A DNA stretch of 63,511 bases, filler included, from Reclinomonas americana ATCC 50394 (taxonomy: Eukaryota): assembly GCA_048213135.1 (NCBI GenBank). It is 11 parts of 4 records of this genome, joined end to end, with 100 filler letters (N's around TTAATTAATTAA, not from the genome) between each part and the next. Parts side by side here need not be neighbours in the genome. Positions count along the whole stretch, not along the records: positions 1 to 3,736 come from PS015253.1; positions 3,837 to 7,350 come from PS015253.1; positions 7,451 to 11,265 come from PS015253.1; positions 11,366 to 24,643 come from PS015253.1; positions 24,744 to 27,718 come from PS015254.1; positions 27,819 to 39,616 come from PS015254.1; positions 39,717 to 49,101 come from PS015254.1; positions 49,202 to 52,723 come from PS015255.1; 3 more parts are not named here. One strand, written 5' to 3'. Positions 556-61,571 of this stretch are shown here, in pieces. The position numbers and the translations under genes were made by a program. The notes under the pieces were generated by a model. The model saw only the letters and a list, made by a program, of their open reading frames with translations. It ran no database searches and was not told where the DNA came from. The number at the start of each line of letters is the position of its first letter. The first letter of the stretch is position 1.

Positions 556-3500
556 AGGGCGATCCGGAGGAGGATGCCAGCGCGCTTCTCCCGCTCCTAT
601 CCATATCCTCACTGAAGGACTCGAGCAGACCGAAGTCACCACGCGGTTGCAGCAGCATGGCACGAGGAGATTGTGCGGGTTCGCGACGACGAGGAGGGGT
701 CACTGGGCGTGAATACTCGTGTTCCCAGTCACGCTGCGCCGTCTCCAGAGGCTTGGCCTGAATGGACTTCGGATGCACGCGCTGTGTCGAAAAAGGGCAA
801 GTGAGAAACAAGTGCGCTAGGAGTGTGTGTGTGAGAGAGAGAAAGTGAGAGAAAATGAGAGAGAGAGCGAGAGAGCCTCTGCTCGCTTCCCTCACTCCAT
901 CGGCGACATATGATCCCACTCACCAGTTCACCAGAATCGTCTGACCACACCAGCGCCATGGCACCATTGTTGTGGTGCACGGCGCAGTAATTCGTAGCAG
1001 AGAACAGGGTGAGCAGGCGACCGCCGGCAAAGAACTCCCACCCGTCGAGGACGACCTGTTCTCGTACACGACAGTGAGTACGTAAGATGATGGAATCGAG
1101 AGGAGTGTGTGTGGCACGGACCTGGTGTGCACGAATGATCAAGTCGATGCCATTCCTTACGCAAAACTGGTCCACACGGTCGGGGCCAAACTGTGTGCCC
1201 ATGCAGAGAATGAGATGTCAAACTCCATAGTGGAGAAGGGACTACGACAGCAGAGACTCTTCAGCCTGCTTTCGATATTGACAGTGATAAACTGCACCAT
1301 CTCACTGCCTCTAGATTTGCTGACACCGTCACAAGCTACCACAGAGTGACGTGGGCCCCACGTGGTGAGGTACAGTGCAGTATTCTTGCTCTGTCTCTCT
1401 CTCCCCCCATCTCCATCGATCTCTCTCTCTCTCTCTCTCTCACGCTCACGAACATACGCGAACGAGGCCGTGGTAAACGCTGCGGCTGTACACAACTTGC
1501 AACGACATCTTTCTGACACGTACTTCTGTCTCCACGCTCCTCCCTCGTGCACCATCTCTCCAGTACCCACCTCATAGACTCCCGGTCCGCGTGAATTCTC
1601 CGGCGTCCCCCGAATGTGATCGTGGTCGGTGGGGTCGGACCACAGGATGTCCATGATCAACCGATCTGTGTCGTTCCACAGCGAAATGTCACCCGATGGC
1701 ACCGTCAGTGGCCGCTGCAACTCACGAATCTGTCGCGATGATCACAAGTTGAGTCCACGAGTCACAGGGAGCACTGCTTGCACGCCACATGCAGACCTGA
1801 TCAAGCGAGTGCAGATTCTTGCCAACGCCGCCGTGCAGAACGAGAATGCGCTTTTGCAAAATGCACCCGAGTGGCAAGCAATCAAACACATCATTGATTT
1901 GGTGGAATAGGCGATCGCCAAGTTCGTTGGACTGGAACCGGATGCGGCATTCGCCCTGGAACGACGACTCATTGATGATGCGGTCCTCGTGGTTGCCGCG
2001 GACGAGAATCACACGCCGTGGGTACCGCAGCTTGAGCGCAAACACCAGACACACCACCTATTCCGTGGAATTGGGAGAGAGTGGTCTCTGTGAGGTGAGA
2101 GCGGAACAGAAACAAATGCGTGAGTGTGTGCACACCTCAAGTTGCCAATTGCCGCGGTCCACCCAGTCACCAATGAACACATAATTGCAGTACTGTCGTA
2201 TCGTTCTTTGGTCAGTGCCAAGAAACACGAGCACACTCTCGAAGGGAAATCGAAATGGCATGCCCACCTGAATGTCGCCGGTGCGGTGATTTGGCGACCC
2301 GTACACCTGGAACAAGTCGAGCAGGTCCGGCAGCTGTCCGTGCACATCACCAAAGACCTTGCAGGGCGCCGCAATCTCCGCCAACATTGGCTCACTCATG
2401 AGACAGTGGATCATCGCCAGACACATGTCGATCAGTTCTTCGGGGGTGACCAACTCAAAGTTGCGATACGTCGGTCGCTCCCAGTGGCCCATCAGCAGCT
2501 GGTCGATGACGCGATTGGCCGTTTGTACTGCCACCGGAATGCCACCGTGTGAGGGAAGCCGGTGCAGATCCAATTGCTCGCTGTGCATGTACGTGAGATC
2601 CTGGCCGAGCCGCTGGCCAATGAGCTTCTCTGTGGACGGTCCCGCATGTGGCCGCCGCTCGGCCACACCGTCTTGCATGCGATACACCACACCGGCGGGG
2701 GCATATCGGAGGGTGCCTGCAGCTCGCTCGCTTCGTGACGGAGAGCGCGAGCGTGGGCGGTCTGCTGGCCGGATGAGCACAGACATGGGCGGGGGAGAGA
2801 GGGGCACAATCACGAACCAGTGGGTGGAGGAGCTGATGGAGGCGGTCCGGCTTCCGGTCGCGACTGGAAGTCGCGACGAGTGAGGAGAGTAAGCATCGTG
2901 GGAATTAGGGATGACAAGAGAGACAAACGTTACGCACCAACATAAACCCAATGGTGGGAATCTCCTCCGGCCCCACCTCGTGTATCGTCGCATGCAACCG
3001 GAACACATGCGATGTGCCACGCAAGTAGCCACCGACCACCGCACGCACCAGTTGGTCTTCTGAGAGTGACCCACCCTGCGCAAAAACCCAATCAGTCATA
3101 CACACGCAAATATCACTCGCAAGAGGAGGAGGACTCAACTCGCTGCACTCGCAGTTCATCAAACACTTGCTGCGTTTCACGCAGCAGCAGGTCCTCACTC
3201 GGCCTGCTGACTCCCGAGCTGCGCTTGATCGCCGCCACCAGCCGCTTCAGCTCATCAAAGCCGAACCGACCATTCTTCGTCGATATGTACATGCGGTAAA
3301 TGTACGACAGACGACGCAAGCCGACCACCGACTCGGTGTCGTGAATCGTGCACGGATCGCTCAGCGCCATGCCTGCAACAGACACAAGGTAAAAAGAGAG
3401 AGAGAGCAGTGATGCGGATCAAGGAGCAGCAGCTCACCAAGCAGAAAAGCTTTGAGAGACACAGTGCCCACCTGCAGCAAACAGCGAGTGAGATCGCAGC

Positions 3501-3573
3501 TGCGTGATACAGCAGGATTAACAAGTGCATCAGAGGATACGTGAGACAGAGTTGCATTGCGCTGCACGTGAAA
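503..3573 (-). CDS. PPP-family Ser/Thr phosphatase with N-terminal EF-hand-like region; multi-exon, 5' end in gap
   Basis: Spliced motifs GDVHGQ, GDWVDRG, RGNHE, LHGG, DILWSDP, FGPD, IIRAHQ, LFSATNYC. N-terminal exons carry EF-like segments (GTVSLKAFLLG; YISTKNGRFGFDELKRLV). Confidence 0.9.
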
Positions 3574-3675
3574 CTATCTAGGAGAGATGCGAATGAGCTC
3601 CGTGACAAACAGAGCAGGGCTTCGTACTCTCCACGTGCGCATGGGGTGCGCGATCTAACGCTCTGCCAAACGGTG

Positions 3676-3728
<53 letters not shown>

Positions 3729-3780
3729 CGTCGTCGNNNNNNNNNNNNNNNNNNNNNNNNNNNNNNNNNNNNNNNNNNNN

Positions 3781-5129: not shown

Positions 5130-7475
5130 ATGTCGTCCGCTGCCACTCATGGGAAAACAATAGGCAGCTATGTTGCGTTTGAGTATGCGTGTGAGTGAGA
5201 GTGTGTGTGTGAGAGATGAGAGGGAGAGATTGCTGTTGATGTTCTTGTACTTCCAAGGCATTGCCCTCGCACACTCTCTCCTGCTGCTGACTCTCTCTGT
5301 GTGTACAAGTGCGTGTGCGTGTGTGAGAGAGAGAGGAGAGAAGAGAGTGTGTGTGCGTGTGTTTGAAATTCATTTGAGAGGAAGTCTTTTCTCGCGCTCT
5401 CTCTTTTCCTCACACACTCACGCACACACTCTCTCACACACAGACTCTCACACTCACCAGTGCGTGTGCACACTCACGTTATTTTGCGGTTTAGAGCTCA
5501 TGATGATGATGATGTGATTGTGATTGATCTTTGACGATTCTGTGTGTTGTTTAGCAACTTGGTGATGTGCTGGGCAAAGGTGGATTTGGTACGGTGTACA
5601 AGGCGCTGCATAGGGAGACAGGGCGAGTGGTGGCCTGCAAGGTGTGTGTGCACAGAGGGGAGGGTTGGGTTGTGTCAGTTCGCCCTCCTCTCTGCGGTGC
5701 TCATCTTCCTCCTCCCTCTTCTCCTCCTCCTCGTCTTCCCTGTTCTTTGTTTCGGGTCTTTTTCTTGTTTTCATTCTTCTTGTTCACATCTCTTTTCCTC
5801 CTCCTCTACCGCCTCCTGCTCCATCTTTATCTTCTTCTCCAACTTCCTCTCCTTGTTTTTCTGTTTCTCCTCCTTCTCCTTCTTCTTCTTCTTCTTCTTC
5901 TTGTTCTTCTTCTTCAACTTCTTCTTGTTCTTCTTCTTCTTCTTCTTCTCTTATTCTTCTTCTCCTTTCTTCTTCTTCCTCTTCCTCTTCCTCCTCCACC
6001 ACCTTCTCCTGCCTCAGTGAACTGCTGGGACTGTAAGCTGTGTTCAGAGAAGCAAGTCACGACAGCAGGTAGTGAGAGAGCAGAGTATATTTGTGCAATG
6101 TTCTTGACACGCCAGTCTTGCTTCTCACTCGCCTATGATGCTGCAGGAAATCCCCATTTCCAAACTGCGCAGCGCGCAGGAACTCGAGAGCATTCAGGTC
6201 AGCATGCACTGTGTCTCTCATTCCTGTGCACCTCTGCGCTCATGTGCGTCGTGTGCAGGCCGAAATCAACCTGCTGAAGAAGCTCTCGAATCGCTACGTC
6301 GTCGGCTACCTGGAGAACATGTCGGTCGGCAACTACTTTTACATTATCATGGAGTTGCGCTGGTCTTTGTGTGATGTCAGCGACGTGGTCACCATCTAAT
6401 TTCACGGTGCACGCAGATATGTCGAGTTCGGCTCCCTGCTGGACATTGTAAAGAAGTTTGGCACCATTCCTGAAAAACTGTGTGCTCTGTACATCACGCA
6501 AGTGCTGCTCGGTCTCGAGTACCTCCACCACGAAGGTGAGTATGGTGGCAGGCATTGAGTGTGGGCGTGTGCTGCAGTGTTGATTCACATACCACCGTGT
6601 CTGCGTCTATTATGTGCACATTGACTCGCTTGCCCTCTCTACTTTGTGTCTCTTGCACCGCGATTCGTTGCCTAAGTGTGCTCGGTGTGTCTAACCTGCA
6701 CCCGTGCCTTGTGTTCTGCTTTATTTCTGATCTGTACAATTTATTTCGCCTCGGCCTTCCCACGTGTATAATCACCTTTCCCCTTCACCCTCTCTTCTCC
6801 TCTACCAGGCGTCATCCACCGCGACATCAAGGGCGCCAACATCCTCACCACCAAAACCGGTCAAGTGAAGCTGGCCGATTTCGGTGTGGCCGCGGAACTC
6901 AACGAAATCGACCCAGAGTCGGTGGTCGGCACGCCGTACTGGATGGCTCCCGAAATCATCACCCTCAATCCGCCGCAAATCACGTCGGACATTTGGAGTG
7001 TGGGCGCCACCATTGTGGAGCTGATGACGGGCAAGCCTCCGTACTTTGACCTCGCCCCGATGCAGGCGCTCTACCGCATCGTGCAAGACGAGTATCCGCC
7101 CATGCCTGAAGGCATTTCACCGGTACGGCCCGAAAGTCGGGCGGGGGAAGCGGTCGGCTCTGTATCTCACTCGTGCACACAGAATCTGCGCAACTTTCTC
7201 GAGCGGTGCTTCATCAAGGATCCCAACCTGCGACCAAAGGCTCGCGACCTGCTGAAGCATCCGTGGATTCGCCAAAACAAGGTGGAGGCGCCGCCGGCAG
7301 AGGAGTTGCGTCGCCTGTTGGAGTTGCGCCATACAGCTTTGCGACTCACGNNNNNNNNNNNNNNNNNNNNNNNNNNNNNNNNNNNNNNNNNNNNTTAATT
7401 AATTAANNNNNNNNNNNNNNNNNNNNNNNNNNNNNNNNNNNNNNNNNNNNACACGACCAACGACGAAGTAGGACG

Positions 7476-7527: not shown

Positions 7528-10037
7528 GAAAACAGTTGCCTTTTCATGAACTCGCAACTCACTGCGTGTGCAGGTGGTCTCTCCATGGACGAATCCGAGT
7601 CGTCAGACTCGGGAATTGGTGCAGGCGCCTCGAGCAGCTCCGTGCGACGAAGGTTCGATGCTCCACTCCGCACACCACGTCTGCGGTGTTACTGACTGCG
7701 CTCGTCGGACATTAAGTGTTTCGCAACCGCGACCCGAGCTCCTCAAATTTCGCGAGGACGAAGAGGAAGACGATTGGATCGAAGACGATGAGGTGGGTGG
7801 GAGTTCATCGACGTGCTGCTGATTTACAATTGCTGCTCACTCGAGTAACTCCAGGTGGTGGTCAAGGTGAACCCACTCCCACAACCGTCACGCGGCGGCA
7901 TCTCCGACATGGGCGACTCGGACGACGATCTGGACTTTTTCAGCGACGAGGACGACGAGCCGTTTGCCATGGTGCAGAACATTTCCAGAAAACTCGTCCC
8001 ACCCCCATCGCGAACACAACAACAGCACCAGCAGCAGCACCACGATACGGTCAAGGCAGCGAAGCCAGCCAAGGGTACTCACGCACCGTCGGCCTCGGTG
8101 GTTGCGTTCTGCGTGGGAATGCATGTCGTTCATGTGCCTGTCCCTTCTCACACCTGCTTTGCACAGCCCGGTACCGCCACCGGTATCAAGCCGCTGTTGC
8201 GTTCTAGCCGAGGCAATGGAAAGAAAGAACAGCTGCTAACATCTCCTCTCATGTGCGCAGAGCTGAACCGCAACCACCACGACCTCAGTCGCTGAGTCGA
8301 AATGCACTCAACAGTTGCGCTTCTCGTGGTTATTTGCTTTCTGCTGTGGCTGCTGATCACTCACTCGCTGGCAGTGTTTGGCGAGGCTGCGCGCAATGAC
8401 CACAGTCTGGATGCATTCCGTGAGGATGACGACGAGGATTTGTTTGGTACGGTCGACGTGCGCACTCGTCATCTTGGCACACAAGTTCACTGTGGCTCGT
8501 GCAGATTTGAATGATGGGCTGGACACCAAGGACCTGGCTGCACGTTTTCGCATGCGACAGCGCACGGTGAGCTGCTCTCCTACGCTCATTGCTTGTGAGG
8601 CTTTGTGTTTGTGTGTGTGTGACACCCTCTCATCACCAAGGTGGACGAGGAGTCGGCAGATGAGGATCCTTTCGACGACGACGACTGTTTCGTCTGTGTG
8701 CTGGTGCTGTTCTTGAGTGGAATCAACGCTAACGTGTCTCTTTGTGCTATTTCAGTTGAGGAGGATGCGCACGAGCCCAAGAGCACATTCCAGCAGCGAT
8801 TCGGCGAGCAGATCCCGCAACTGTTGAAACAGCTGACCCCCACGACTCCTGCTGAAGAAATCAAGGAGGCGTGCAGGCTGCTGGTGCGTGTAGCGCGTGT
8901 ACCTGAATCAATGCCGCGCTGTGTGTTCCGCGAGCTCATGTGACATTGCAGACGAGTATCTTCAAAGAATTCATCAACGAAAAGTTTCTGGTCACAGCGC
9001 GCAGCGGTATTGTACCGCTGCTCGACTTGCTGGAGCTCGATGACATGTATGTGGTGGAGGCTGTATATCGTCTCATTATTCAGGTTCGTTGGCCTGTGTG
9101 ATTCTGCTGTTGTTATTGTCAGTTCGTACTGATCATGCGTGGCACTCGAGCAGCTGATTGAGGGCTACAAGGAGTTCCTCACCAACATCTCATTGACTGG
9201 CGGTATTCCGCTGCTGATGAAGTTCTGTGCGCGCGGCTACCATCGCGACTTGCGTCGTCAAGCCGCTCGCTTTGCCAACGAGTTGTGCAAGGAACCGTTG
9301 CGTCCCTCCCCTTCATTCCAACCCCCCAATGCTTTCTCTCCTCCTCATAGACTCCACTCGCACAGTGAATTCATCCAGATGCTCATCGCGTGCGGTGGCA
9401 TCACGCACCTCGTCAACCTGTTGGACCACACGCAAGAGTCGTTTGAGGAGTGCCGCGAATTGGTGTACCAGGGCGTCGAGTGCATCAAGAAGATATTTGC
9501 CGCCACTCGCACCTTCAAGCGCGACTACGCCCGTCTGTTTGTGAAGGCTGGCTTGCTGCCGTCGCTGGTCACGGCGTTGCATTACACACTCGTGGAACTG
9601 CGTCGTGTGATGACTAGCGGCCGCGTGGCCGCAGGCGGTTTGACGGCTCCTCGTTTGATTGAGCGCGCCGACGACATGGCGCAGATGCTGGAGACCATTT
9701 CGCAGTACGAGGAGTACGTCAAGCAGCGATTCGCGCAGGACGCAGTGTTGCAGAGTTGAGTTTTCCGCGGGAGATTACATTGTCTTCTTTCTCTCTAACG
9801 CGCTCGCTTGTCTGCGCAGCCATTTTGGACATTTTCGGCTACCTGCCTCGCCACCTGGAGACCACCATGGTGCGAGTGGTGCGCAACCTCACCGACGACG
9901 AATCCATTCGCAACGAACTCGCACGCTTCATTCCGACCCTTGTCGAGTTCCTCTCCCGACGCGGTCCCGATCAGCTGCGCATTCGCAACACCGTCATCCA
10001 CGCCCTCTTCAATCTGTGTCGGTGGAACACGAAGAAT
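5130..10037 (+). CDS. SepA/Cdc15/Cdc7(Sp)/MAP3K-epsilon-type kinase: kinase domain, acidic linker and ARM-like region
   Basis: [68 protein letters not shown], followed by helical ARM-like exons (GGIPLLMKF..., LFNLCR). Confidence 0.9.
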
Positions 10038-15056: not shown

Positions 15057-18000
15057 AGGAGTGGTGGCCAGGCGTGACGGATTCTCATTGCGCGCGCGCA
15101 CAGGCGGAGGAGTCGTCGGCAAATGGGGATGCGAATGGTGGTGGAGGTGGTGGGAAGTTCTGGATGCGAGCGCGCAAGGCGTTTGTTTCGTCGTCGTCGC
15201 TGTCGTCGTCGTCGGCGAGTGCGAGTGGAACGCAGTCGAACTTCTCCACGATGGGAACGAGCAGCGCCACGTCTCGATACAGCACCGATCTCATTCCGTA
15301 CTCGCGTCCGCCCGTCAACACAGAGGAGTCGCGGGAGAATGAGATCACGCTGTTGCGCATTCAGGTGCAGTCGTTGGAGTTGGCCAAGGCCGACATCGAG
15401 AAGGCATACACCGAACTGGCCAAGCAAAAAGCCACGCTCAATCGCAGCAAGTCGGATGTGGGGTTGGCCAATGCGCAGTTGCGCACGCAGTTGGTCGAGG
15501 AGGAGAAGAGGAATGCGGAACTGGCCGTGCGCGTGCGGGAGCTCGAGGTAGAGTCGCTCGCAGAGCAGGCCTCCCGCCCACTGCGCTGCTGCGTGGTGTT
15601 GATTGTCTCCCGTTGCAGGTGGCGCTGGCGAATGCGAATGCGGCCACGGCGGCGGCAACGGCACCAGCCGCGAGCGCATCTGCGGCCGCCGGTAGCAGTG
15701 GTGGTGCGGCTAGCCTGGCGGCGCTTCTTGGTCTGGGGCCGAGTGCAGGTGGGCAGGCCGGTGGGCAGGCCAGTGCCGATGAGTTGCTGAGATTACGCGA
15801 GGAGAACCAAGTTCCGTGTCTGTCTTTGTGAGCAGAGTGCTGTTGATTTTTAGTGCTCACTCTCGTCGTCACAGAAGCTGCAGCGTGCAATGGCCGCGGC
15901 AAAGCAGCAAGCCGACAAGCGTGTGGAGGACCTGGAGAAGCAGCACGAGCAGCGTCTGACCGAAAAGGAACAGGCGCTCTCGGAGATGCGCAACGAGCTT
16001 AGGGAAGCCAAGACCGACAATGAGAAGCTGCGCAAGGCGGTGACGCACGCCGAGGCAGTCGCCGAAGAGATTCGACAGCGCCTCCAGTCGTCGAATTCGG
16101 ACGCCGCCGCCAGTCGAACGCAGGCTCACGCGGAACTCAAGTTGCGTGCCGGCTGCAGCGGGAGTCTTTTTTCTTTGTTGTCTTCTCACACTGCGCTCAA
16201 TGTGCAGAAAAGTGCAAGATCAGCTGGCGCAAACGAATGTTATCCTGGCCAAGCGTGAGCGAGAGCTGGAGAGAATTCGTGCTCGCCACGCGCCGCTGAC
16301 GGCTGCGCGATCGCGGAGCACGTCGCGATCCAATAGTCGTCCCTCGTCGGCCAAGGTTCGTTTTATCCATCACTTACTCACACTCTCCCTTTCGGCTGAC
16401 TAACAGCGTACCACGCACACACACAGCCTCAAGCCACTGCGTCGTCGGCCATGGACGTGACAGATATTTCGAGCGACGAAGGCGACGTGGCCAGCATTAA
16501 TAATGGCGACGTGGTCGATTTCGGAGCGCTGTTGGATGACGACGAGGATCCGGAGATTCGCGAGATTGCTCGTCTGGTGAATGTGCAATCGCGCATGGCG
16601 GCAGAGATTGGCCCCGACTTCCTCCCGCCACACATCTATGAGATCGAGGGTCACAACGGGAGCGGCCTCAGTTACCACACCACACGGCGCGGATCACCGC
16701 CACTGGCGCGACTGATTGTGTCGCCACCGAATGGCACTGGCACAGACGGCAGCGGTGCGAGCAACAGCACACCGGCTTCCCACAGCAGCGCCTTGTCACC
16801 GCCGTCCATGGCCGGACGCGGCGGCATTTCCACGTCGTCGCTGATGCTGAGTCCGCCGTCGGAGGGTGAGAAATCGAGTGCCTCGAGTGCCTCGTCGGGA
16901 CGTGGCTCGGCGCACAAGTACGAGGTCATTGAGGCCGGTGGCGAGACCGTCAGCGTGCCTGTACGACCGCTGCCGGTGCGACGTGCTTTTTCGGCCCGCA
17001 ATGTCTCACCGACTCGCCTCTTCACCAACACCGCCGCCGCCAATGGTATTATCGGCGGCAAGCAGGCGGCTGCGCTGACACGGCGCGAGAGCGCGCTGAT
17101 TGCTGCCTACGGACCCCCTGTCGCTGCATCGCGAACCAACAGTTCCAAGTCAACCAGCACACGGAAAGGTGCCACCCTTCTCCCCGCTCTCCTTTTCTGC
17201 TCGTGTCGCTGACCGCGCCTCGCCAGATTCAACCAGCAGTGATCGATCGTCGTCAACGGGCTCACGGCCGCGGTCCGCTCAGTCGCGAGAGCGCGAGCGC
17301 CACGGCAGCTTGCCTGTGAATCAGGTGGCGGACGTGCCCGCCGGCACGCGTGCCTTGCAGCGGAGAGTCAGCAGCGCCACGGTGCGCTCGTCGGGTGTTC
17401 CGAGTGTGGCCACGGGCGGCACATCAAGTGGTTCGGCGCAGTCCATTCTCTCGAGAGCTCGCGAGGCTGCAGCTTCGGTGCAGACCACGCATGCGCCGCT
17501 GGATGCGCCGACAGTGGAGCCCATTACGCTGCGCACCAGTGTAAATGACCTGGTGCGCATCACCAGCGTGGTGTCGGAATGGTCGCAGAAACGAACAGCG
17601 TCGGTGTTGCAGGCGTTGACTTTGAGAGTTGCGTCGAATCGGTGTGTGGGGCATGGCACAGCGATGACTGACTCTTTGTGTGCAGGGTATCCACACTGTT
17701 AATGACGTGTTGGAGCAGTGGCGGCAGCTGCAGACGTATGGCTTGCGACGCAAAGTTCTGCGTAGTTTGCGTGTGTCGATTGTGGACCGCCTGGACGAAA
17801 AATCGCTGGAGCGTCTGCTTCCGCACCTTGCCATGTTAAGCCCAGATGGCGGCGGGGAATCGGGAGAAGAATGAAACCTCTGGTAGTGGGTGTTACCGAC
17901 GAGGATTTACCGGATGCTTTTGTTTTCTCTCTCTGCCGATATTCGGATGGCTCACAAGGCGCAGGAGTTTTATTGTACACGCTGGAGGGCTGTCATCGCA

Positions 18001-31177: not shown

Positions 31178-32184
31178 TCATTCGTTCATTCGCTTGACGG
31201 GTTGTGGGCAATGCCGCACAGCGAGACCCACTTGACCAGTGCGCGTTGCAGGTAGTCGCCAACGGACTGACGTGAGACGTTGGCTTTGCGGTTCACATCG
31301 TCTGCGTTTGTGTACAGTTAGAACGGCAACACAGCAGGTGGCGACGAGATTGTTGTTGAGCTTGCCTTGTACAAACTGGAATAGTTTGTGTCGCAGCTCG
31401 GCTGTTGGTAGGAGTCCTGCGTGTGCGGCAGCCGCCTGTGTTGTTGCGCGGATGTGAGGAAACGGTGGCTGTGTGCAGTGCGATGCGTGGATCGGCGAAT
31501 TACCTCGCTGGAGAATGCAATGTCGTCGAGCGCGGAGGCGTCGGGCACATGCAGTGAGAACGAGTCCGGCGACAGATTCACATTCAACGCCATGACCACG
31601 TTCAGTGGCTCGGGGCGACGCGCCACGGAGCCTGGCGGTGGTGCAGGGAAACTCCGCCAGAAGCGGATCTGGTGGCGATGTCAGTCGAGAGAGTGAGGAA
31701 AAAGAGGGCAAGACGCACGTGGTCGCACCAGCATAATGTGCGTGTTGGGTGCAGATGAGCGCTGGAACGGTGAGCTGAGGCGGAACTTGCGACACTTTTC
31801 GTGCTCCCACAGGAATTGCAGACCACAGCGCGCCTCGGGTGACTGGTCGTAGAACGTCGGGCACGGCTGCAATCACCAAGCTTGGTGAGAAACTCAAATC
31901 ATGCTGCCTCATGACACAGGTGAGCCACACCTTGGACAGGCGCAAAATGTCCACCACCGACTGCAACGAGTTGAAGTCGAGAGCTAGCATGGCGAGCAAC
32001 GTACGGAACGGCTGCAGCGGTTCGCGAACCCACGGCTCATCCATCTGCGATGCACGAGAGAAGAATGAGCTCCAGCACACACACATATACACACATGACA
32101 AGAGACGATCGTGCCTTTCGATTGAACGCAGTCACCACGTCCAACGTCTCCTCGTACAACGCTAGCGAGTTGAAGGCAGTGTAA

Positions 32185-32219
<35 letters not shown>

Positions 32220-43753: not shown

Positions 43754-44777
43754 AAACTCAACATTAGCGACTGCAAGGGCGTGGAGCCGTACACGAGTAT
43801 GCGCCACGTCGATTTGTCGGATAACCAGTTGAAGGTCTGCAGCACTCTCTGTCGCCGCACACACGTCCTCGTGCTCACCCCTCTCCGCAGAACGTGGAAC
43901 CACTGGCCGCCATCACCGGCGCCCTCCTCACGCTCACCCTGGCCAACAATCGCACCCTGTCGACCATTGCACCCATTGCCTCACTCCGTTGCGCCTCCCC
44001 CACCCCTTTCTCCAATCTCATTCTCGTCTTCGGCTCACTGTTTCTCGCAGCACTTCTCGTCGTGCTGGATCTCACCTCGGCATTCGGCAAGGTGGTGGAC
44101 AAGTTCGAGATGGAGTTTGATGCGCCGTCGATGCGCACGCTGGTGCTCTCGCGCAATCGATTCAAGACGCTGGCGATTTCGGGAGTGGCTGCTCTGGAGA
44201 CACTCGTGTGTGATCACAATCACCTCACATCGCTGGGCGGTGTGGCCGGTGCCGGCTCACTACGGGAAATCATTGCGGAGAAGAACCGCTTGAAGACGTT
44301 GGCTGGCATTGAGGCGTACGGCTCACTGGCGCGTCTCGATGTGAGCCTCAATCGCCTCTCGTCGCTCCAGTCGCTGGCCGACGCCGCCGAGGCACTCGGC
44401 AACCTGCGGGAACTGGTGCTGGCCGGTAATCGATTGGCCGACGTCGCACAGCTGGCACACCTGGGTGGTCTGGCGGCACTGCGGGATTTGCACTTGCGGG
44501 GTCTATTCTGTTTACGATCAGAATTCCTCTCCATGCATGCTCTCACCTTTTCCCCTTTGCAGAAAACCCCGGCGAGTTTGAGATTCCGGTCGTGTTGGAG
44601 CGACTGAAGGACTACTTTGTGGCCGAGCCGCGGCTCGTCACCATCGATGCGGAGCCGGTGACACGGCAGCACCGCGAGGAGGCATTTGATATCTACCGGC
44701 AACGGGAAGAGGAGCGCATTGCGAACGAGAAGGCCGCTGCGGAAGCCGCGGCTGCTGCCGAGGCGGCAGAGGAGTAA
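43754..44777 (+). CDS. SDS22-class leucine-rich repeat protein, LRRC23-like; 5' end missing
   Basis: LxxLxLxxNxL repeats, LRR cap (ENP...LVTIDAEPVT) and an acidic tail. Confidence 0.75.
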
Positions 44778-51418: not shown

Positions 51419-54400
51419 ATGGCGTCCGCGGTGGCCGCCGGTGACGATGAACCCATCATCACTCCGCCACAGCAGCGACCAAAGGATCGATACACGCGGG
51501 TTGAGTAATCCACAGAGACGCAGACAGACAGACAGACAGACACACTGATCACTCTCTCGCACGTATGTGTGTGTCACCTCTGCCACCACACTGGCATTGC
51601 GCGTCTCTCTGTGCACGCGCGTGTGTGTGTGTGTTTCGTCCCAGTTGATGGCTGATCGCACTCGTTTGCACTTGGGCACGCTTCCTCATTCCCATTCTCT
51701 TGTCTCTCTCACGCACATGTCTCTGTCTCTCTCTCTCTCTCATGTGTTCGAGAGACAAGCACATGCGCACAAAGAAGCGGCTAGTTGCCCGAGTGCGCGC
51801 GCGCGCTTGAATGGTTTTTCTCTTGGTGCTTTACAAGGGCGGCCATCTTCCACCGCCAAACCTTGTTTCTTTTGTGTGCTCTTCTGCTTCTCTGTGAATG
51901 CACGCCACCACTCTATCCCACACTGAGTCGCACGCACATGTGTGTTTTGCGTTCGTGTCTCACATACCACCGAAAGAGACTTGAGGGCTTTTTCCGTTGC
52001 TCTCACACGCGTGACTCTGACACGCTCTCTCTGCTTGTGCGCGTGTGTGTGCGTCTACAGTTGGGGCAGATTGGCGTTGGCGCATACAAGATTGTGTACG
52101 AGGCCGTCAACCACGACACAGGCACGCAAGTGTGTTGGAACGAGCTCAAAATCCCGCACGGCGCTCCTCCGGTCAGTCACACTCTCTCACACACACACGC
52201 ACTTGCTTGCCTCTCTCTCTCACACGCGTCTCTTCTTGCTTGTGTGCACACACAGGACGACCGTCGCAAGATCTTGCGCGAGGTGGGCATCCTGCAGCGC
52301 TTGAATCACGAGCATGTGATTCCGATCTTGGACTGCTGGGAGGACCCTGCCAATGGCGAGCTGGTGTTCATCACAGAGGTCTGTGTGTGTGTCTTGCTTG
52401 CTTATGCAGTGTGTGCGTCTCAAACGAGCGTGTGTGTGTAACAGCTGATGACCTCGGGAACGCTGAAAGAGTTGCGTCTATATTGGAGCGGAATATGGGA
52501 AGCTTTTCACTGTGTGTTGGAGACGCATGTGTGTGTCTGTGTGCCTGTTTTGTGCGTGTGCGTTCCTCCGATGCCCGCTTCGCGTGTCGCCGCCGGTTGT
52601 TCAATTCAACTCCTTTGGCATCTGTGTGTGTGTCGGTCACCCGTTTGTTTTGTGTGTTGTTTTTTTTTCGGGACGGCACTCTTTGTGCACGTGCATCTGC
52701 ATATGCGTGTGTGTGGCGCGGCANNNNNNNNNNNNNNNNNNNNNNNNNNNNNNNNNNNNNNNNNNNNTTAATTAATTAANNNNNNNNNNNNNNNNNNNNN
52801 NNNNNNNNNNNNNNNNNNNNNNNTCGGGGTACGGAACGCGTTCCAGGGCCGCCGGCTTCAGGCCCTCAATGACCTTTTTGAAAATGGCGGCCATGTTGGT
52901 GCACTCGCTGAACGGGTACTCGCCCGTCGCCATCTCCAACACCACCATGCCAAAGGCGTAAACATCCACCTTGGTGGTGTACCGCTCGTTGTACAGCTCG
53001 GGGGCCATGAACTCGGGAGTGCCTGTCGCAAAAATGGCAATGAGATTCGCAATCTACGAAGGCCTTTTCACGGTGCAAGATACTCACCAATGACAGACAT
53101 GGCGTAGCGCTTCTCCTTCATCATGTACGACAGGCCGAGATCGCCAATCTTCAGCTCGCCGCGGGTGCCATTCACGAACAGGTTGTCTGCGCGACGAGTG
53201 AGACATCATTCTCGTGACCTGCACGCATGAAAAGTGCAACACGCACCGGCTTTGATGTCGCGATGAATGATTGGTGGTTCGTGGTTGTGCAGGTACGAGA
53301 GGCCATGCAGAATCTGAATGCACCAGTTCTTGATGATCTTCAGCTTGACCTTCTTCACGCGCTTCAGATATCTGGGTGGCGCGGGAGTTAGTCACCGGAC
53401 GATACAGCAGCGCGCAAGAGACAGGAATGGAAAGCATACAACTGCTTCCACCCCGCGGCTACTGATGCGCACTCTCTGATTTTGCTGCTCGGGAGAAGGA
53501 GAGGGAAGAGGGAGAGGGAAGAGGGAGACGAAGCAGACACGGGACACTCACTGTATGCACAGTCTGACAATTACCAATCGTCACAGATCCTCTCTCCTCT
53601 CTCCTCTTTCTCCCCTCTCCTCTCCCTCTCTGCACCTGNNNNNNNNNNNNNNNNNNNNNNNNNNNNNNNNNNNNNNNNNNNNNNNNNNNNNNNNNNNNNN
53701 NNNNNNNNNNNNNNNNNNNNNNNNNNNNNNNNNNNNNNNNNNNNNNNNNNNNNNNNNNNNNNNNNNNNNNNNNNNNNNNNNNNNNNNNNNNNNNNNNNNN
53801 NNNNNNNNNNNNNNNNNNNNNNNNNNNNNNNNNNNNNNNNNNNNNNNNNNNNNNNNNNNNNNNNNNNNNNNNNNNNNNNNNNNNNNNNNNNNNNNNNNNN
53901 NNNNNNNNNNNNNNNNNNNNNNNNNNNNNNNNNNNNNNNNNNNNNNNNNNNNNNNNNNNNNNNNNNNNNNNNNNNNNNNNNNNNNNNNNNNNNNNNNNNN
54001 NNNNNNNNNNNNNNNNNNNNNNNNNNNNNNNNNNNNNNNNNNNNNNNNNNNNNNNNNNNNNNNNNNNNNNNNNNNNNNNNNNNNNNNNNNNNNNNNNNNN
54101 NNNNNNNNNNNNNNNNNNNNNNNNNNNNNNNNNNNNNNNNNNNNNNNNNNNNNNNNNNNNNNNNNNNNNNNNNNNNNNNNNNNNNNNNNNNNNNNNNNNN
54201 NNTCTGCGCGAATTCATCGAGTTGTGCTTGCTGCCGGAGGAGCAGAGATGGGACGCTGATCAGCTGCTGAACCATCCCTTCTTGGCCGACCCCGAGAGTG
54301 ACGACGGCCGCACCATTGTGTTGGAAGGTGGGTTGTCGGGATCATTATTTTGACGCACCTGGCATTTCGCTCACTCTGTTTGTTTTCGCGTGCAGCCGAC

Positions 54401-56158
54401 AAGTCGATGCTGACCGCCGGCGCTGTGGTCATTCCGCCGCCGTCGCCGTCTGGAAATCACTCGCTGACCGTGGGGAACGTCACCAACAGCTCCTCCTCTG
54501 CTGCCGGGGGCTCGGTGGCCGCCGTTTCTGCACCCGTGTCGGTGAATTCGACAGGGCATCTCCATCCGTCGCCGCCCCAGGTACCGCCAATGCTCGGCTC
54601 CTTGGAAGCTCCCGGCTCTCTGAGCCACTTGCTGGAAGGCGACGAGGAGGAAGAGGCTACCAGCTCAGAGATGATGGAGGGAGCGCAGGCGGTGGTGCTG
54701 AAGGAGGAGGGCGATGTGTTGTACATCAAGCTCACGCTGCAGTCGGAGGACAAGCGGCGTGAGGTCCGCTTCAAGTTCAACCTGTTGAAGGACACGTCGG
54801 ATATGGTGGCGCAAGAAATGTGTCAGGAGCTGGACTTCCCGGCGTCATTCATGGCCTGCGTCAAGCAGGATCTCGACGTGATTGTGAGCAAGAAGAGGAC
54901 GGTCATGGAGGTGGCCTCGCGCACGACACCCACCTCTGATGGCTCGGGCAACTTGATCGCCGATGCCGCAACGTTGCGTACTCTGGTGGATGATTGCTTG
55001 ACAATAAGTCGCTAAATCACTTCTCTCTCTCACAGTACTCCAATGGCCACCAGTCCGCGGGAGAGCCTCGTTGGTATGCTGGTCAAGAGCAAGTTTGACG
55101 GTGGCGGCGATGCACGACACTCGCGCGCCTCGTCTGGTGCGTGATGACACTCGTTTGTAGGAACATGAGTTGAGCGCACGTACTCATTCATTTCTTTTTG
55201 TTGCTCTCCAGGTGCTTCACCGGTGTTCTCTGCGGTCACGACCGTGTTCCCCGATGGTGGATCAAGTGGAGGCGCGGCGGGCGACGACACACGTCAAGTT
55301 TCGTCACGAGTCCACTGTGTTTTTCTTGTCCGTTTCTCGCACACTTCTCACCCCGCGACGCAATCGCAGCCCTCTTCGCCCCTGGTGCACAACTCGCCCC
55401 CCAAGCTGCCCCCGGATCAGCCAGCTCAGGCTCCAGCCAAGCCAGTCGACGTTGCGTACACCCAGAGTGCCTCGAGCTACCACTTGCTGTGTCTCACATT
55501 TTGTGTGTGTGTGTGTGTGTGTGCAGGATTTTGACCTTCTAGTCGGCGGTGTGGTGGCGCCTCCCAACGTGCAGCGTCCGACTGTCGTGGTGCGTCCCGT
55601 TTTGCTTGGCACCAATCTCCGTGTGCAATTTACTTACCCTTGTGTGTGCAGGTTCCCCCATCTCCTCCTCGTGGCGTGGTGGTGACGGCACCAGTGTCAC
55701 AGCCGCTTGTGCCCCTCTCACCACCCACCTCCTCGTCGACCACGCCGTCGCCGACGACTCCTGGTGTGGGTGCGCCGCTCTCACCGAGGACACTGCAGAC
55801 GCCGACTCCTGTGCCAACTCCCACCTCGGCCATTCTGATTCCGCTCACTCCGCCACCAGTGTCGTCGCAACCGTCGTCGCAGTCGACGTCGCCGATGCAC
55901 ACGCCCATTAGTCAGCCGGCATCCATGGTGCCGTCATCTGCCGTCGCTCCGCCGCGGCAGGAGGCTCTCATTGAGGACCTCTTCACGGCACCGGACAGCG
56001 TGGAACCTGCGCCGCGACCAGTCACAGTTCCCGACCCATTCAGTCCGTTTGGCATGCACAACCTGCCGCCGCCCATGGTGCCTGCTTCGCCAGCCTTTGG
56101 CGGCAGTGAGTCGGACTACGATGCGGCGGCTGAGCCCGGTCAGGCGCTTGGTTTCGCG
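51419..56158 (+). CDS. WNK: WNK-family kinase; exons at 52824-53371 are on a flipped contig, 3' end in gap
   Basis: GVGAYKIVY (Lys in subdomain I), [44 protein letters not shown]2/CCT-like [19 protein letters not shown]; Pro-rich tail. Confidence 0.92.
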
Positions 56159-57686: not shown

Positions 57687-59115
57687 GGGCGAGGAGACGG
57701 AGGAGGAGGTGAGAGAGACCTTGGGCAGTGCGGCGGCCAGCAAGGCCAGTCGACTCTCCATGCACGCAGCGAAGAAGATCCACTCAGTGTCCTGCGTGTT
57801 GATTGTCAAACGAATGGAGATCTCGGCGACGCCATTGCCACTGGCGCTGCTGGCGTGTGATGGCGGTGTGTATCTTTGTGAGCCTCCTTCCCACTCACCT
57901 GCGCGACGAGCTCACCCCCGTCGCAGACCACTTTGACTTTTCGCATCGTCCGGAGAACATGCTGTGTGCCGACTCGTCAGTGTACTCGTCGTCGCCATCG
58001 CGTGGCGCTCAGCATGTGCACATGTTGATGGCGTGTGATCCCGATGGGCGGTTGCGGCGACGGCGACGACTGATGCGACGCACCCCGGCATCATCATCAT
58101 CGCGAGCTCCGCCTCCACCGACGTCGTCTTCTTCGTCTTCATCGTCGCTCTTGCGTGGACTGCTGTTGGATACGTTGGCGTTGCGGCAGCAGGTGGCGCC
58201 TCGTCTGTACCAGCAGCGGCGTCCTCCTCCTCCTGCTTCACAGCAGCAACAGCAGCAGCAACAACAACAGAGGTCGTTGTTGTCTTCGTTCATGTCGAGC
58301 GTGTCGATTGCGGCGTTGGCGGCTGCGGCACCGGGTGTGCGTGATCGACCGCGCGCACCCTTGTCGTCGTCTTCGTCATTGGATTCAGCAGGGCACAGCG
58401 CTGTGTTGCGTCGTGCGGCCTTTGCTGCGCAGCACGATGATGACGACGATGACGACGACGATGGCGACGATGACGACGACGATGGCGACGATGATCAAGA
58501 AGACGAAGAGGTCGACGGTGGCGAGCAGGAAGGGGAGGAAGAGGAGGAGGAGGAGGAAGCGGCAGTGGATGAGGGCGACGGTGATTCGCCGGCCTCGACA
58601 CGAGCGTTTGTGTGTTCACGGGTGTTGATCAAAGCGCCGGAGACGGGCACTCATCCGCTACGCTCGTGTGTGGTGGCGTTCTCGTGGGATGCACCGCCGG
58701 TGCCTCCGGATCCGGGCGGTCCGCACTTTGAGGAGTTGTCGCACCGCGAGTTGTTAGAGTTGTCGGCGTGGAGTCGAGGCAGAGCGACGACAGCGACGGC
58801 GAGTGATGCGTCGCATGTGCTGGCGGTCGGTGATCAACGAGTGCTATATGTGGATCTCGGCCGCAAGCGTTCGTGTGCGGTCGACTTTCCTCCCGTCGTC
58901 TGCCGCTACGTGTCATTAAGTTGCGTCCTCGGCATTGCCCTTCTCCCCCTTGTTCATCCATCTCACCAACAGACATCACCACAGCACTGCTCGACGCCAG
59001 CACTTCGTCCTCGTCGGCGGCAGCCAGAGCCGAACCACACGTCGATGTGCAATACTTTGCGCTCTTCGGCAACTGCACTGGACCCTATGTATTTGGCGAT
59101 CAGGCGCTGGCATGA
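57687..59115 (+). CDS. Uncharacterised protein, probable galactose-binding-like beta-sandwich split by a low-complexity insert
   Basis: LLACDG|DHF..RPENMLCADSSVYSS ... FVCSRVLIKAP ... VDFPPVVCRYVSL|NI...HVDVQYFALFG. Confidence 0.6.
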
Positions 59116-59370
59116 CACGAGATTGCTAATTCAACGTAAAATGTATACTTCCAACAAATGCCAAACACGAGAGCAGCACCAACGCACACACACACTCACA
59201 CTAAATCACGTGGGCAATCAACACCAACACCAACTACCACTTCCCGAGGTCACACAAGACGGCAGGCATTCTGTGCCTCGCCCTCCAGTCCTCCTGTTGC
59301 GCCACACTCTACCACAAACATACATGCATAGATACATACACACACAGATCCACTCGGTGCACAGAGACTA

Positions 59371-61571
59371 TTACTGATTCTTGCACTCTTGCTTCTCGGG
59401 CGCCTTGAACTGGAAGCCACCCTTCTTGCCACCACCAGAGCCAGCACCGCCTTCACCGTCGTCCTTCTTGGACGGTGGTGGACCGGCCTTGCCGCCACGC
59501 TTGCCCTGCTTGCCCTTCGGAGGCTCGTCATCGCTGCTCTCATCGTCATCGTCGTCGTCGTCATCATCATCATCGTCGCCGCCGCCACCCATCATGCCAC
59601 CCTGCATCAGCTTCAACAACTGCAGCACGTAGCAAGCAAATGGTAAGCGACCAAAGAGGAAAGGGGATCAGTAGCGAAAAGGTGCGAACGCAACTGTCTC
59701 CATGTCCATCTTGTCGTCGTCGGGGCCGGCAAAGTAGTCGACGGCCTTCGGGATGATGCTGTCGCGGAAGAACATGCCAATCTCCAAATCCTCCTGTATC
59801 CTGGCGTGCTTCTGCAGAGGGGAGTGTGAGAAGGCAGCACGCTACTGCGTACTAAATAAAACACCCATTCACGCAACTCCGTCGTCGGAGCCAGAGCCGT
59901 CGTCATCATCATCGTCGTCGTCCTCGTCGTCGCTGTCGTCGAGCGCAGGCGGGTCGAAAAAGTTGAAGAACGAGTCGACCTTGACGTACTGGTCCACCGG
60001 TGCACCGCCACGTCCGCCGCCACGTCCGCCGCGGCCACCACGGCCTCCGCGACGACCAGCCTTGCCTTGGATGCGCTTCTTGGTCAAATCCTGGCCCTTC
60101 CAGTGAATGGGGCAGCTGTTTTCAACAACAACAAGTGAGATACAAACACCAAACAAGATACGGGCACGCTACGTTTCTCTCTCTCTCTCTCTCACCCCTT
60201 GACGTCACGCAGCACTGGTGACTCCTTCTCTTCCGGCACAAAGTTGTACTCCTTGGTCAGCACAGTGTCGGAGAAGAACTCGTTCTCGTTGAAGTGGAAC
60301 TCCAGAGTGAAATCCTGCGCACAACAATAAAACGACATGAGTAACACAGCTAAAATCCCTGCTTTGCAGAAAAAGACGATAGCAACGCACCCGCTGTCCG
60401 GGGACGGAGATGGCGCGAATGTCGCGCAGCGAGCGGAGAGCATCCAGATCGCGCTCCTCAATCAGCTGCTCAAACTCCTCCACATTCATCAGCACACTCA
60501 ACCAGAACTCGGGCACACCGCGGGGCGCGGCAGCCAGCTGCTCGGCAGTCGGAGCCTCGGGCCGTTCTGGTCTGCCCTCATCCTCCTCGTCGCCCTCCTC
60601 CTTCTCCTTCTCACCCTCCTCCTCGTCGTCGTCCTCCTCGGGCTTCGCCTTTTGCGACTCGGGCACCTCAAAGTCCGCATCCGCCGGCTCCACCTCGCCC
60701 GTCACAATGGCCGAGCGGCGAGCAAACAGCGGCGCCATCAGCGCGTGGTACTTGTCCTCCACCGCCTGCAGCTCCTCGTGCTTGCGCAGAATCAAGTCGT
60801 CGACCTGCAGCTGCAACGTCTCCAGCGCCGCAATGCGGTACTTGACGGCCGCCGGCGTCTCCTCGTCGTCGTCCACGTCACCCTCCTGCATGCGGCCCTC
60901 GCCAGACGACGAGCCCGCACCAGCACCACCACGCGACAGCGCGGCCAGCAGCGCCTCCGCCGAGGTGGCCTTGGACAGTGTCCGATCTGCCATGGCCGAC
61001 GACACTGGCGTGTTGGCCGGAGTCGTAATCGACGGTTGCATGCGCGACGCCACCGCCTGCAGACTCTCCGTCACCGTCAGACCTATAAATAGGGGGGTGA
61101 GTGAAAAAAGAAAACAAAGTGGGCCATGTGCACATGCACATGCACGCACATATATTTACAACACTTCCCCCCCGACTTGGAGAACACGCAAAAGAAAGAG
61201 CGCGGCGAATGATGCACACAGCAGAACGCACGACAGGCAGACCATGAGGCAGAGGCAAACAAAACAGATGCGACCAAATGCTCGAACGGGGTTCAAGTCT
61301 GACAGTGAAACTGACCCCCAAAACACGCCGGCGCACACAAAGACACACGCGGAGAGGAAGAGAGAGACAGCAAAGAGAGAGAGAGAGACACACACAGAGG
61401 GAGAGATGAACAAGCAAGTCAAAAGAGAGAGCTGCTCGGAGCCATTTCGCACACGCTCTCTCCTCCTCTCTCACACACACACTCTCTCTCCCTGTTCTCC
61501 TCTCCCTTCCCCACTCACCAAACGCCGGCGACGCAGGCGACTCTGGCACCGCAATGCCCAGCGAGCCCTGT
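59371..61571 (-). CDS. NAP1: Nucleosome assembly protein 1; 5' end in gap
   Basis: GVPEFW, FTLEFHFNENEFF, LTKEY, CPIHWK, DSFFNFF, IIPKAVDYF, acidic tracts and a terminal CKNQ CaaX-like motif. Confidence 0.95.

Follow-up and report, generated by a model that had tools for sequence, protein, structure and literature searches.

A frequent second class of 5' splice sites in Reclinomonas americana, with the local donor consensus displaced by one base

The founding paper on 5' splice sites read by the U1 small nuclear RNA (snRNA) in a shifted register is reportedly that of Roca and Krainer in 2009, with a class of some tens of sites, and bulge registers at +2/+3 are said to go back to Roca et al. 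2012 in Genes Dev. Here we describe the introns in a stretch of 63,511 bases from the genome of Reclinomonas americana ATCC 50394 (assembly GCA_048213135.1; the window), in which donors of the type GTTGCGT, here called the GTT class, stand as a frequent second kind of 5' splice site beside ordinary donors such as GTGCGT and GTGAGT.

Human donors read in a register shifted by +1 are established, also experimentally in cells (excerpts of PMC4856993 and PMC9311317). They have a GU without canonical complementarity to U1 and match U1 when it is moved by one position, while the cut stays at the GU, which is the arrangement proposed here for the GTT class. The 'Shifted +1' model oligonucleotide in an excerpt of PMC4856993 carries A at -1 and G at +6, like the GTT class, and the same excerpt gives all validated non-canonical registers as 3119 of 201,541 human donors (1.5%). 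A tunicate preprint, in the excerpt available, only speculates on the use of a shifted register. Generally, shifted and bulged registers explain about 1% of donors in the organisms studied, and they have been studied one minigene at a time.

The human shifted class is rare, whereas the GTT class seems to make up roughly 15-30% of the introns in the window, has a tight GTTGCGT consensus built on the local GC-rich donor, and is described here from sequence. A donor type that is rare in humans here seems to form a second consensus that is both major and sharply defined. The +2/+3 bulge registers resemble the GTT class in having an extra U after the GU and the remaining consensus one base downstream; a bulge keeps position -1 opposite C9 of U1 and predicts a G there, whereas the GTT class has none. 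With the ordinary U2-type GT-AG introns of this genome the GTT class shares the GT..YAG ends, a length of about 65 nucleotides (nt), a CTNAY motif and the occurrence of all three phases; the ordinary donors differ in having G at -1 (16 of 17) and G at +5, in contrast to the missing -1 G and the +6 G of the GTT class. U12-type and GC-AG introns are also minority classes with a distinct 5' end. The 5' consensus of minor introns has T at +2 followed by ATCCTT, and none of the 28 heptamers treated below resembles it. Lexical searches of open-access papers by motif string and by concept found no report of a frequent shifted donor class in any lineage, although the genome paper or supplements might hold one; the motif strings retrieved primers and unrelated matches only.

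Placement of donors by protein homology

An earlier note on this DNA had listed 28 donors of the GTT class, and all 28 heptamers (17 GTTGCGT, 3 GTTGCGC, 3 GTTGAGT, 2 GTTCCGT and 3 GTTTCGT) are present at the positions and on the strands it gave. Junctions were placed with a protein-to-DNA spliced aligner that uses BLOSUM62, any GT or GC donor, any AG acceptor and one flat intron penalty; it carries no donor motif and cannot prefer GTTGCGT over other GT dinucleotides. The homolog sets comprised MAP3K-epsilon/SepA orthologs (best 76% identity), Fzr1/Cdh1 homologs (best 75%), WNK orthologs (63-75% identity) and archaeal thermosome loci standing in for CCT; a homolog search with the ARM exon of the kinase gene gave zero matches. 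The contigs carrying the WNK gene were put in proper orientation and joined before alignment. Altogether 24 introns were pinned by homology in the SepA-like, Fzr1, WNK, third kinase and CCT genes, 7 of the GTT class and 17 ordinary. The GTT-class features are (a slash marks the cut):

5172..5554, plus strand: intron t/GTTGCGT..TTTAG, phase 0, in the SepA/MAP3K-epsilon-like kinase gene; 11 of 30 orthologs
6354..6416, plus strand: intron a/GTTGCGC..CGCAG, 63 nt, phase 2, joining FYIIM-E-YVEFGSL; 28 of 30 orthologs
8687..8755, plus strand: intron t/GTTTCGT..TTTCAG, 69 nt, phase 1; commonest solution, 11 of 30 orthologs
9297..9365, plus strand: intron c/GTTGCGT..GCACAG, 69 nt, phase 2, stop-free in frame, in the ARM-repeat region; 18 of 30 orthologs
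9755..9819, plus strand: intron a/GTTGAGT..GCGCAG, 65 nt, phase 1; 8 of 30 orthologs, rival joins at most 3
26698..26761, plus strand: intron t/GTTGCGT..GCTGCAG, 64 nt, phase 0, in the Fzr1/Cdh1 WD40 gene; 30 of 30 homologs
52445-52470, plus strand: micro-exon of 26 nt in the WNK kinase domain, LMTSGTLK plus 2 nt; 29 of 30 orthologs
52471..52477, plus strand: donor a/GTTGCGT of an intron that runs off the contig; 29 of 30 WNK orthologs
53372..53385, minus strand: acceptor ..cccag/ that pairs with donor 52471, on the adjacent contig, which is in reverse orientation

By sequence comparison, donor function was shown at these seven sites (5172, 6354, 8687, 9297, 9755, 26698 and 52471). Within the SepA-like gene every rival solution at the GTT sites has fewer than 4 of the 30 orthologs. 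At 5172 no rival join reaches 3 orthologs, no other GT of the same phase exists, and reading through meets a stop after 8 codons. The 6354-6416 intron, if read through in tblastn, appears as a 21-residue insert containing a stop, and the 9297-9365 intron as a 22-residue insert relative to all four displayed orthologs. The 8687 join was found with 7 of 24 orthologs at a lower intron penalty. At 9755 a stop lies 1 codon past the donor, and there are zero alternative donors in the same phase. The 26698 join is gapless (NLHWSSNI/NELVSTHGY versus NLVWSKNV/NELVSTHGY in the homolog P0130). Moving both of its boundaries by one base was considered as well; this would change the N of NELVSTHG to D, and the N is matched in both displayed homolog alignments. 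The join at 52471 continues into eYLKRVK, the WNK gene running on the plus strand up to 52471 and resuming on the minus strand from 53371; with distant STE kinases this join is found by a plurality only (11 of 40). The protein joins GSY/QLG, IME/YVE, SNI/NELVSTHG and TLKE/YLK, which the earlier note had read from conserved protein sequence, were all borne out by the spliced alignment.

The ordinary donors pinned in the same way are:

5642, plus strand: GTGTGT, SepA-like gene; 24 of 30 orthologs
6198, plus strand: GTCAGC, SepA-like gene; 24 of 30
6536, plus strand: GTGAGT, SepA-like gene; 29 of 30
6536..6808, plus strand: the ordinary control intron g/GTGAGT of this donor; 29 of 30
7123, plus strand: GTACGG, SepA-like gene; 29 of 30
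8884, plus strand: GTGCGT, SepA-like gene; 14 of 30
9084, plus strand: GTTCGT, SepA-like gene; 20 of 30
26579, 26815 and 26993, plus strand: GTGAGG, GTGCGG and GTGGGT, Fzr1 gene; 30 of 30 homologs each
52172, plus strand: GTCAGT, WNK gene; 24 of 30 orthologs
52379, plus strand: GTCTGT, WNK gene; 29 of 30
53246, minus strand: GTGCGT, WNK gene; 29 of 30
53087, minus strand: GTGAGT, WNK gene; 30 of 30
38228, minus strand: GTGAGT, third kinase gene; 24 of 40 STE kinases, with zero GTT-class donors in this gene
47680, minus strand: GTGAGT, CCT gene; 24 of 24 thermosomes
45581, minus strand: GTGCGT, CCT gene; 16 of 24
45313, minus strand: GTACGT, CCT gene; 23 of 24

Only three CCT introns were pinned because the middle of the gene falls in gaps. 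The spliced aligner gave no robust join for the N-terminal Fzr1 contig or for those C-terminal parts of the SepA-like gene that lie flipped.

Reading frames, domain continuity and frequency of the class

Beyond the seven donors placed by homology, the list of 28 divides into one site with full (59877) and one with partial (22467) Pfam support, 17 sites consistent with the reading frames, and two (38558 and 58920) for which no support was obtained. Pfam searches with 14 flanking exons gave usable coordinates for the NAP and PB1 domains only, the other 10 being blank or noise.

59794..59877, minus strand: intron a/GTTGCGT, 84 nt, phase 0, within the NAP domain
22357..22467, minus strand: intron a/GTTGCGT, 111 nt, phase 2, stop-free, within the PB1 domain

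Across the first of these, the upstream exon reaches position 235 of the NAP profile with 8 residues to spare and the next exon covers positions 244 to 265 of 266; a stop lies 2 codons past the donor and there is no other GT in the same phase. At 22467 the downstream exon begins at position 22 of 84 of the PB1 profile, the join reading EVRRFRVPR-D-SSFDELVNRL, and the upstream exon alone has no Pfam match.

At each of the 17 further sites the upstream frame is open, a YAG acceptor lies 56-84 nt downstream and the frame beyond it is open as well. Donor function at these sites is plausible, and phase-compatible chains link 8196 to 8314, 32417 to 32245, and 55298 to 55451. The candidate introns are:

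3076..3139, minus strand: a/GTTGAGT..TTGCGCAG, 64 nt, phase 0, in the N-terminal part of a PPP-type phosphatase gene; upstream open reading frame (ORF) of 93 codons, stop 8 codons past the donor; chosen in every mode of the parser described below, including that with a 14-bit handicap
8196..8260, plus strand: t/GTTGCGT, 65 nt, in an unconserved linker of the SepA-like gene; phase 2, leading to phase 1 at 8314; CTNAY present
8314..8374, plus strand: a/GTTGCGC, 61 nt, SepA-like linker; its frame fits 8196-8260 and the downstream exon
15811..15874, plus strand: a/GTTCCGT, 64 nt, phase 0, coiled-coil gene; join ELLRLREENQ/KLQRAMAAAKQQ; upstream ORF of 156 codons, stop 6 codons past the donor, join opening a 127-codon ORF; zero same-phase GT alternatives
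16141..16207, plus strand: a/GTTGCGT, 67 nt, phase 2, coiled-coil gene; join AHAEL-K-KVQDQLAQTNVILAKRERELE; upstream ORF of 95 codons; donor taken by the parser with another acceptor
17628..17685, plus strand: a/GTTGCGT, 58 nt, phase 0; upstream ORF of 176 codons, acceptor TGTGCAG leading to a 62-codon ORF
19596..19660, minus strand: t/GTTGCGT, 65 nt, phase 0; stop 2 codons past the donor, acceptor leading to a 120-codon ORF; zero same-phase GT alternatives
28516..28582, plus strand: t/GTTGCGT, 67 nt, phase 0, gene for a multi-pass membrane protein; join LPQH/RWFLATCFALAAV; upstream ORF of 191 codons, coding scores positive on either side; taken by the parser
32162..32245, minus strand: a/GTTGAGT, about 84 nt, phase 1; stop 1 codon past the donor; acceptor uncertain; phase matching the exon that starts after 32417-32358
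32358..32417, minus strand: t/GTTGCGT, 60 nt, phase 0; upstream ORF of 129 codons, in frame to 32245; taken by the parser
35127..35182, minus strand: a/GTTCCGT, 56 nt, phase 0; ORFs of 113 codons upstream and 131 downstream; taken by the parser
36187..36246, minus strand: c/GTTTCGT, 60 nt, phase 1; join DDIYGLC-H-SFCARSAFEVL; coding scores 0.37 and 0.28; zero same-phase GT alternatives; taken by the parser
43988..44050, plus strand: c/GTTGCGC, 63 nt, LRR gene, phase 1; protein join APIASL-P-LLVVLDLTSAFGK; per-codon coding scores of 0.30 and 0.39; zero same-phase GT alternatives
54973..55035, plus strand: c/GTTGCGT, 63 nt, phase 2, C-terminal region of the WNK gene; ORF of 223 codons on the upstream side with a coding score of 0.46 per codon, stop 14 codons past the donor; zero same-phase GT alternatives; taken by the parser
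55298..55369, plus strand: a/GTTTCGT, 72 nt, low-complexity; weak, as three frames are all open; phase-0 join leading to 55451
55451..55526, plus strand: c/GTTGCGT, about 76 nt, low-complexity region; weak, acceptor uncertain
59620..59694, minus strand: a/GTTGCGT, 75 nt, phase 0, tail of the NAP gene; stop 8 codons past the donor; coding scores 0.64 and 0.84, the highest among the sites; zero same-phase GT alternatives

The 36246 site had been assigned to MED14 with the join LC/HSFC; the join is consistent with the frames, while the MED14 label has no Pfam match behind it. The two heptamers left without support are:

38552..38558, minus strand: a/GTTGCGT; in no phase is there a coding-like upstream exon joining the kinase exon that starts near 38401
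58920..58926, plus strand: a/GTTGCGT; the ORF of 372 codons upstream of it matches no family and scores near zero for coding, no convincing acceptor was found, and it is doubtful which strand codes here

A frame-restoring YAG acceptor was found inside the window for 25 of the 28 sites, the acceptor of 52471 lying on the next contig. When alternative GT or GC donors sharing phase and acceptor were listed for the 25 sites, no other GT with G at +5 existed in 19 and no other GT of any kind in 10, and none of the alternatives had a G at -1. These introns have a median length of 65 nt, 23 of the 25 falling within 56-84 nt. At a distance of 8-35 nt ahead of the 3' AG, the branch-like CTNAY motif is present in 20 of 25 GTT-class and 12 of 16 pinned ordinary introns versus 415 of 2555 (16%) of all YAG sites, a test that is not fully blind as the consensus was selected after viewing the sequences. 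Introners, i.e. transposon-derived introns, were considered as a source: an all-against-all blastn of the 25 introns returned 12-16 nt matches of microsatellite type only. As the GTT-class introns share no sequence beyond such fragments, they are not copies of a mobile element.

The GTT class exists beyond chance and has its own flanking rules. The window holds 7159 GT sites, of which 183 (2.6%) show the pattern GTT-N-[ACT]-G-[TC], versus 7 of the 24 pinned introns (binomial tail 1.7e-6). The share of the class is 7 of 24 in the pinned set and 17 of 116 among the introns of an exon-chain parser. If the plausible sites are counted as real introns, it comes to about 26 of about 120; this last figure, about one in five, lies near the previous hand count of one intron in four or five. 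The parser scored codon usage and acceptors and gave the same reward to two donor classes, one defined by G at +5 and the other by GT-X-N-N-G-[TC], with one run for each X and no term for position -1 in the donor score. The runs gave:

X = T: 17 of 183 donors used, total parse score gain 171
X = A (decoy): 3 of 84 donors used, total parse score gain 4
X = C (decoy): 6 of 185 donors used, total parse score gain 55
X = G (decoy): 14 of 358 donors used, total parse score gain 47

Usage with T differs from that of the pooled A, C and G decoys (Fisher p = 0.006), and three GTT donors were kept by the parser despite a penalty of 14 bits. By heptamer, it used 9 of 26 GGTGCGT and 7 of 22 GTTGCGT copies, 1 of 72 [ACT]GTGCGT copies and 0 of 41 copies of five control heptamers; since the donor score contains no -1 term, the difference made by the preceding base is real. 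Many of the 72 [ACT]GTGCGT copies sit in GT/GC-rich intronic repeats. A motif-free version, with codon usage and bare GT/GC..AG boundaries, was coarse, skipped known short exons and overused GC donors; the donors it chose include 9755, 59694 and 59877. A site-centred coding-drop score is noisy (median 8.7 for any GT) and suggestive only, exceeding 15 at 9 of 21 GTTGCGT and 11 of 25 G/GTGCGT copies, with controls at or below the 25% background.

Gene finders built on a single donor matrix will mis-model about one intron in five in this lineage, the outcome being broken frames or read-through of many stop-free introns of 60-70 nt. Three introns in the window (7123-7182, 9297-9365 and 22357-22467) are stop-free and a multiple of three long, and ORF scans run through them; read-through of stop-free introns appears as inserts of 20-37 residues in Pfam or PDB alignments.

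Pairing with U1 and alternative explanations

Ordinary donors follow G/GT-[GCAT]-N-G-N, with the -1 G in 16 of the 17 pinned cases. In the GTT class none of the 28 sites has G at -1, where A stands in 16, U in 7 and C in 5 (Fisher p = 2.6e-11 relative to the ordinary donors). Among all 22 GTTGCGT copies in the window just one follows a G, a count that does not depend on how the earlier note chose its sites. Position +3 is T in all seven pinned donors that lack the +5 G, where 23% would be expected if the base were irrelevant. At -2 of the ordinary donors, which faces U10, G occurs in 1 of 17. Aligned on TGCGT, both classes read as G-[G/T]-T-G-C-G-T; where the second base is G the cut follows the first G, and where it is T the cut precedes it.

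In an excerpt of Tan et al. 2016 (PMC4856993) the U1 5' end is given as AUAC-psi-psi-ACCUG, with +5G facing C4 and +6U facing A3. Pairing was computed with a human-type U1 5' end, AUACUUACCUG, and the mean numbers of U1 pairs were:

Canonical register: GTT class 4.1, ordinary donors 8.1
Register shifted by one: GTT class 6.5, ordinary donors 5.1
Register with +3 U bulged: GTT class 6.6, ordinary donors 6.5

We consider it moderately probable that GTT-class introns are GT-AG introns of the ordinary spliceosomal kind whose donors form a second, frequent type, with the U1 helix shifted by +1. The usual donor, G/GTGCGT or G/GTGAGT, needs the exonic G-1, and the second type has the form H/GTTGCGT (more rarely GTTGAGT, GTTCCGT or GTTTCGT). 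The U1 5' end may pair in the same way with G-[G/T]-T-G-C-G-T in both types, the cut falling 5' of the first GT within the heptamer. In the GTT class the helix would lie one base deeper in the intron, so that C9 faces the intronic G+1 instead of the exonic G-1, A7 pairs with U+3, C4 with G+6 and A3 with U+7, while -1 faces U10; a later step, carried out by U6/U5 in other organisms, would fix the cut at the GU. Which snRNA reads the class, in which register, and how U6 copes with it, we infer. More tentatively, and with somewhat less than even confidence, we propose that about one in five introns is spliced through a U1 helix displaced by one base, the code being the heptamer G-[G/U]-U-G-C-G-U cut before its first GU, possibly with an altered or second U1. 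If true, this would be a natural, genome-wide system that uncouples the U1 register from the cleavage site, with hundreds to thousands of natural test cases, and would speak to what fixes the cleavage site once U1 has left, to how U6 deals with a displaced donor, and to the evolvability of the U1 5' end and gene family.

The earlier note had proposed that this lineage uses a shifted register routinely, through a permissive U1/U6 or dedicated variant snRNAs. What stands of this is a frequent second donor class equal to the local consensus moved one base into the intron; for the register itself, the -1, +3 and usage data favour a shift over a bulge. In the latter, normal U1 would pair in the canonical register with one U, at +2 or +3, bulged out. 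Such bulges are validated in human cells (PMC4856993, Figure 1C legend), and the pair count would be equal (6.6 versus 6.5). Position -1 would still face C9, however, predicting G as in the ordinary donors (16 of 17), whereas 0 of 28 have it, and the bulged base need not be U, yet A, C and G at +3 remain at background and T is found in 7 of 7 pinned sites. As -1 is never G and only U occurs at +3, the shifted register fits better, and the bulge is quite improbable. It is unlikely, to a lesser degree, that these are real donors read without any register shift by a different U1, with a changed 5' end or as a variant complementary to GUUGCGU. Standard U1 pairs poorly with the class (mean 6.5 pairs; +0.5 to -4.6 kcal/mol), one sequence dominates (GTTGCGT/C at 20 of 28 sites), the C at +5 is preferred over A in spite of its mismatch with U1 position 5, and variant U1 snRNAs exist in human cells (excerpts of PMC3561869 and PMC10870369). 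Full complementarity would explain neither the loss of the -1 G nor the equal usage of GGTGCGT and GTTGCGT, for which a single snRNA reading a single heptamer is the simpler account. Given the weak helices and the preference for GCGT over GAGT with standard U1, a second U1, or one whose 5' end is altered, stays a live option; Rfam models found no family above threshold in the window, and hence no snRNA gene within it.

Two further explanations concern the cut and the reality of the class. The true donor could be the GC three bases downstream (GTT/GCGT), giving a GC-AG intron and an exon longer by one codon. Such a donor keeps the frame at each GTTGCG site, the 52471 join is not recovered with one of the 30 WNK orthologs, and the alignment of P0251 shows one extra residue at the junction. 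With GC allowed at equal cost, homology still prefers the GT boundary (28 of 30 at 6354, 30 of 30 at 26698, 29 of 30 at 52471 and 18 of 30 at 9297); an extra residue has no place in the gapless IIME-YVE and SSNI-NELV alignments, and the explanation is inapplicable to GTTGAGT, so that we regard it as extremely unlikely. Slightly less remote, and still very unlikely, is a class made up of chance heptamers at mis-modelled junctions or of an assembly or sequencing artefact, such as an extra T or a G read as T. Gaps interrupt the fragmentary assembly, some of its contigs are flipped and at least one stretch is duplicated; the excess by composition is modest (22 GTTGCGT versus roughly 7 expected from base frequencies) and is shared by GTTGCGC, with 21 copies of which 3 are claimed as donors, and the coding-drop test is weak. 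Against this, seven sites are placed exactly by homology, a T inserted into ordinary donors would leave a -1 G that no site has, a misread G+1 would make the exon one base longer and break the frame, e.g. at NELVSTHG, and branch motifs and intron lengths are as in real introns. We consider the artefact or chance reading largely refuted.

Several points weigh against a shifted U1 helix at a frequent donor class. With standard U1 the shifted helix is weak, at +0.5 to -4.6 kcal/mol versus -4.5 to -13.3 kcal/mol for ordinary donors, and its pair count is matched by that of the bulged U. The choice of GCGT at 20 of 28 sites versus the better-pairing GAGT at 3 of 28 is unexplained by standard U1, and a G at -1, which could form a wobble pair, is absent although the shifted model does not require its absence. 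All junctions derive from protein homology or reading frames, from which the cut site is inferred; 17 of the 28 sites come from reading frames and 2 are unsupported, while at 5172, 8687 and 9755 the join is that of a plurality of orthologs (8-11 of 30). The 28 sites had been chosen by motif, which biases statistics over all of them, and the pinned genes, three of which were selected for carrying flagged sites, are a biased sample; in the CCT gene, which has no flagged site, 0 of 3 pinned introns are of the GTT class.

The window and further observations

Of the 63,511 bases 7,689 are N, and the G+C content of the called bases is 57%. The window is a chain of small contigs, with fillers of the form N44-TTAATTAATTAA-N44 between the parts that are not genomic sequence; they recur about every 3.5 kb, and additional gaps of 20-920 N are present. 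The filler joins are:

3737-3836: filler
7351-7450: filler
11266-11365: filler
24644-24743: filler
27719-27818: filler
39617-39716: filler
49102-49201: filler
52724-52823: filler
56159-56258: filler
61572-61671: filler

Single genes, namely WNK and the SepA-like gene, are split over neighbouring contigs in either orientation, and so probably is Fzr1; the SepA-like gene switches strand after 10038, as WNK does at its own join. Gene models must therefore be assembled across flipped joins. Among the 150 longest of 449 open frames of at least 70 amino acids, Pfam identified a PPP phosphatase, a SASA esterase, a kinase with ARM repeats, EGF repeats, a PB1 protein, a Cdc20/Fizzy WD40 protein, a further kinase, an LRR protein, a CCT chaperonin subunit, a WNK-like kinase with an OSR1_C domain and a NAP protein.

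Of the 22 GTTGCGT copies on both strands, 17 are among the claimed donors. One that is not, at 7305-7311, lies in the last exon of the kinase gene on its contig and reads as ordinary coding sequence, so the heptamer alone is insufficient to make a donor. Another unclaimed heptamer has a twin across an assembly gap:

34534..34540, minus strand: a/GTTGCGTGCA, with 145 open codons upstream in phase 2 and a stop 10 codons on
34054-34060: twin a/GTTGCGTGCA on the other side of the gap, in a 99.5%-identical flank of 211 nt

The two copies are possible further donors of the GTT class. The 211-nt flanks of the gap at 34173-34442 (about 33962-34172 and about 34443-34652) probably reflect an assembly duplication. 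A repeat of about 260 nt, 86.5% identical, opens two contigs (3-249 and 11368-11625) and may be a dispersed repeat or mobile element. Finally, positions 339-725 of a 1788-nt contig in a genome bin of an uncultured Bacteriovorax (L001) hold a CCT exon 62% identical to that of the window, versus only 40-48% for archaeal thermosomes; this contig looks like eukaryotic DNA binned with a bacterium.

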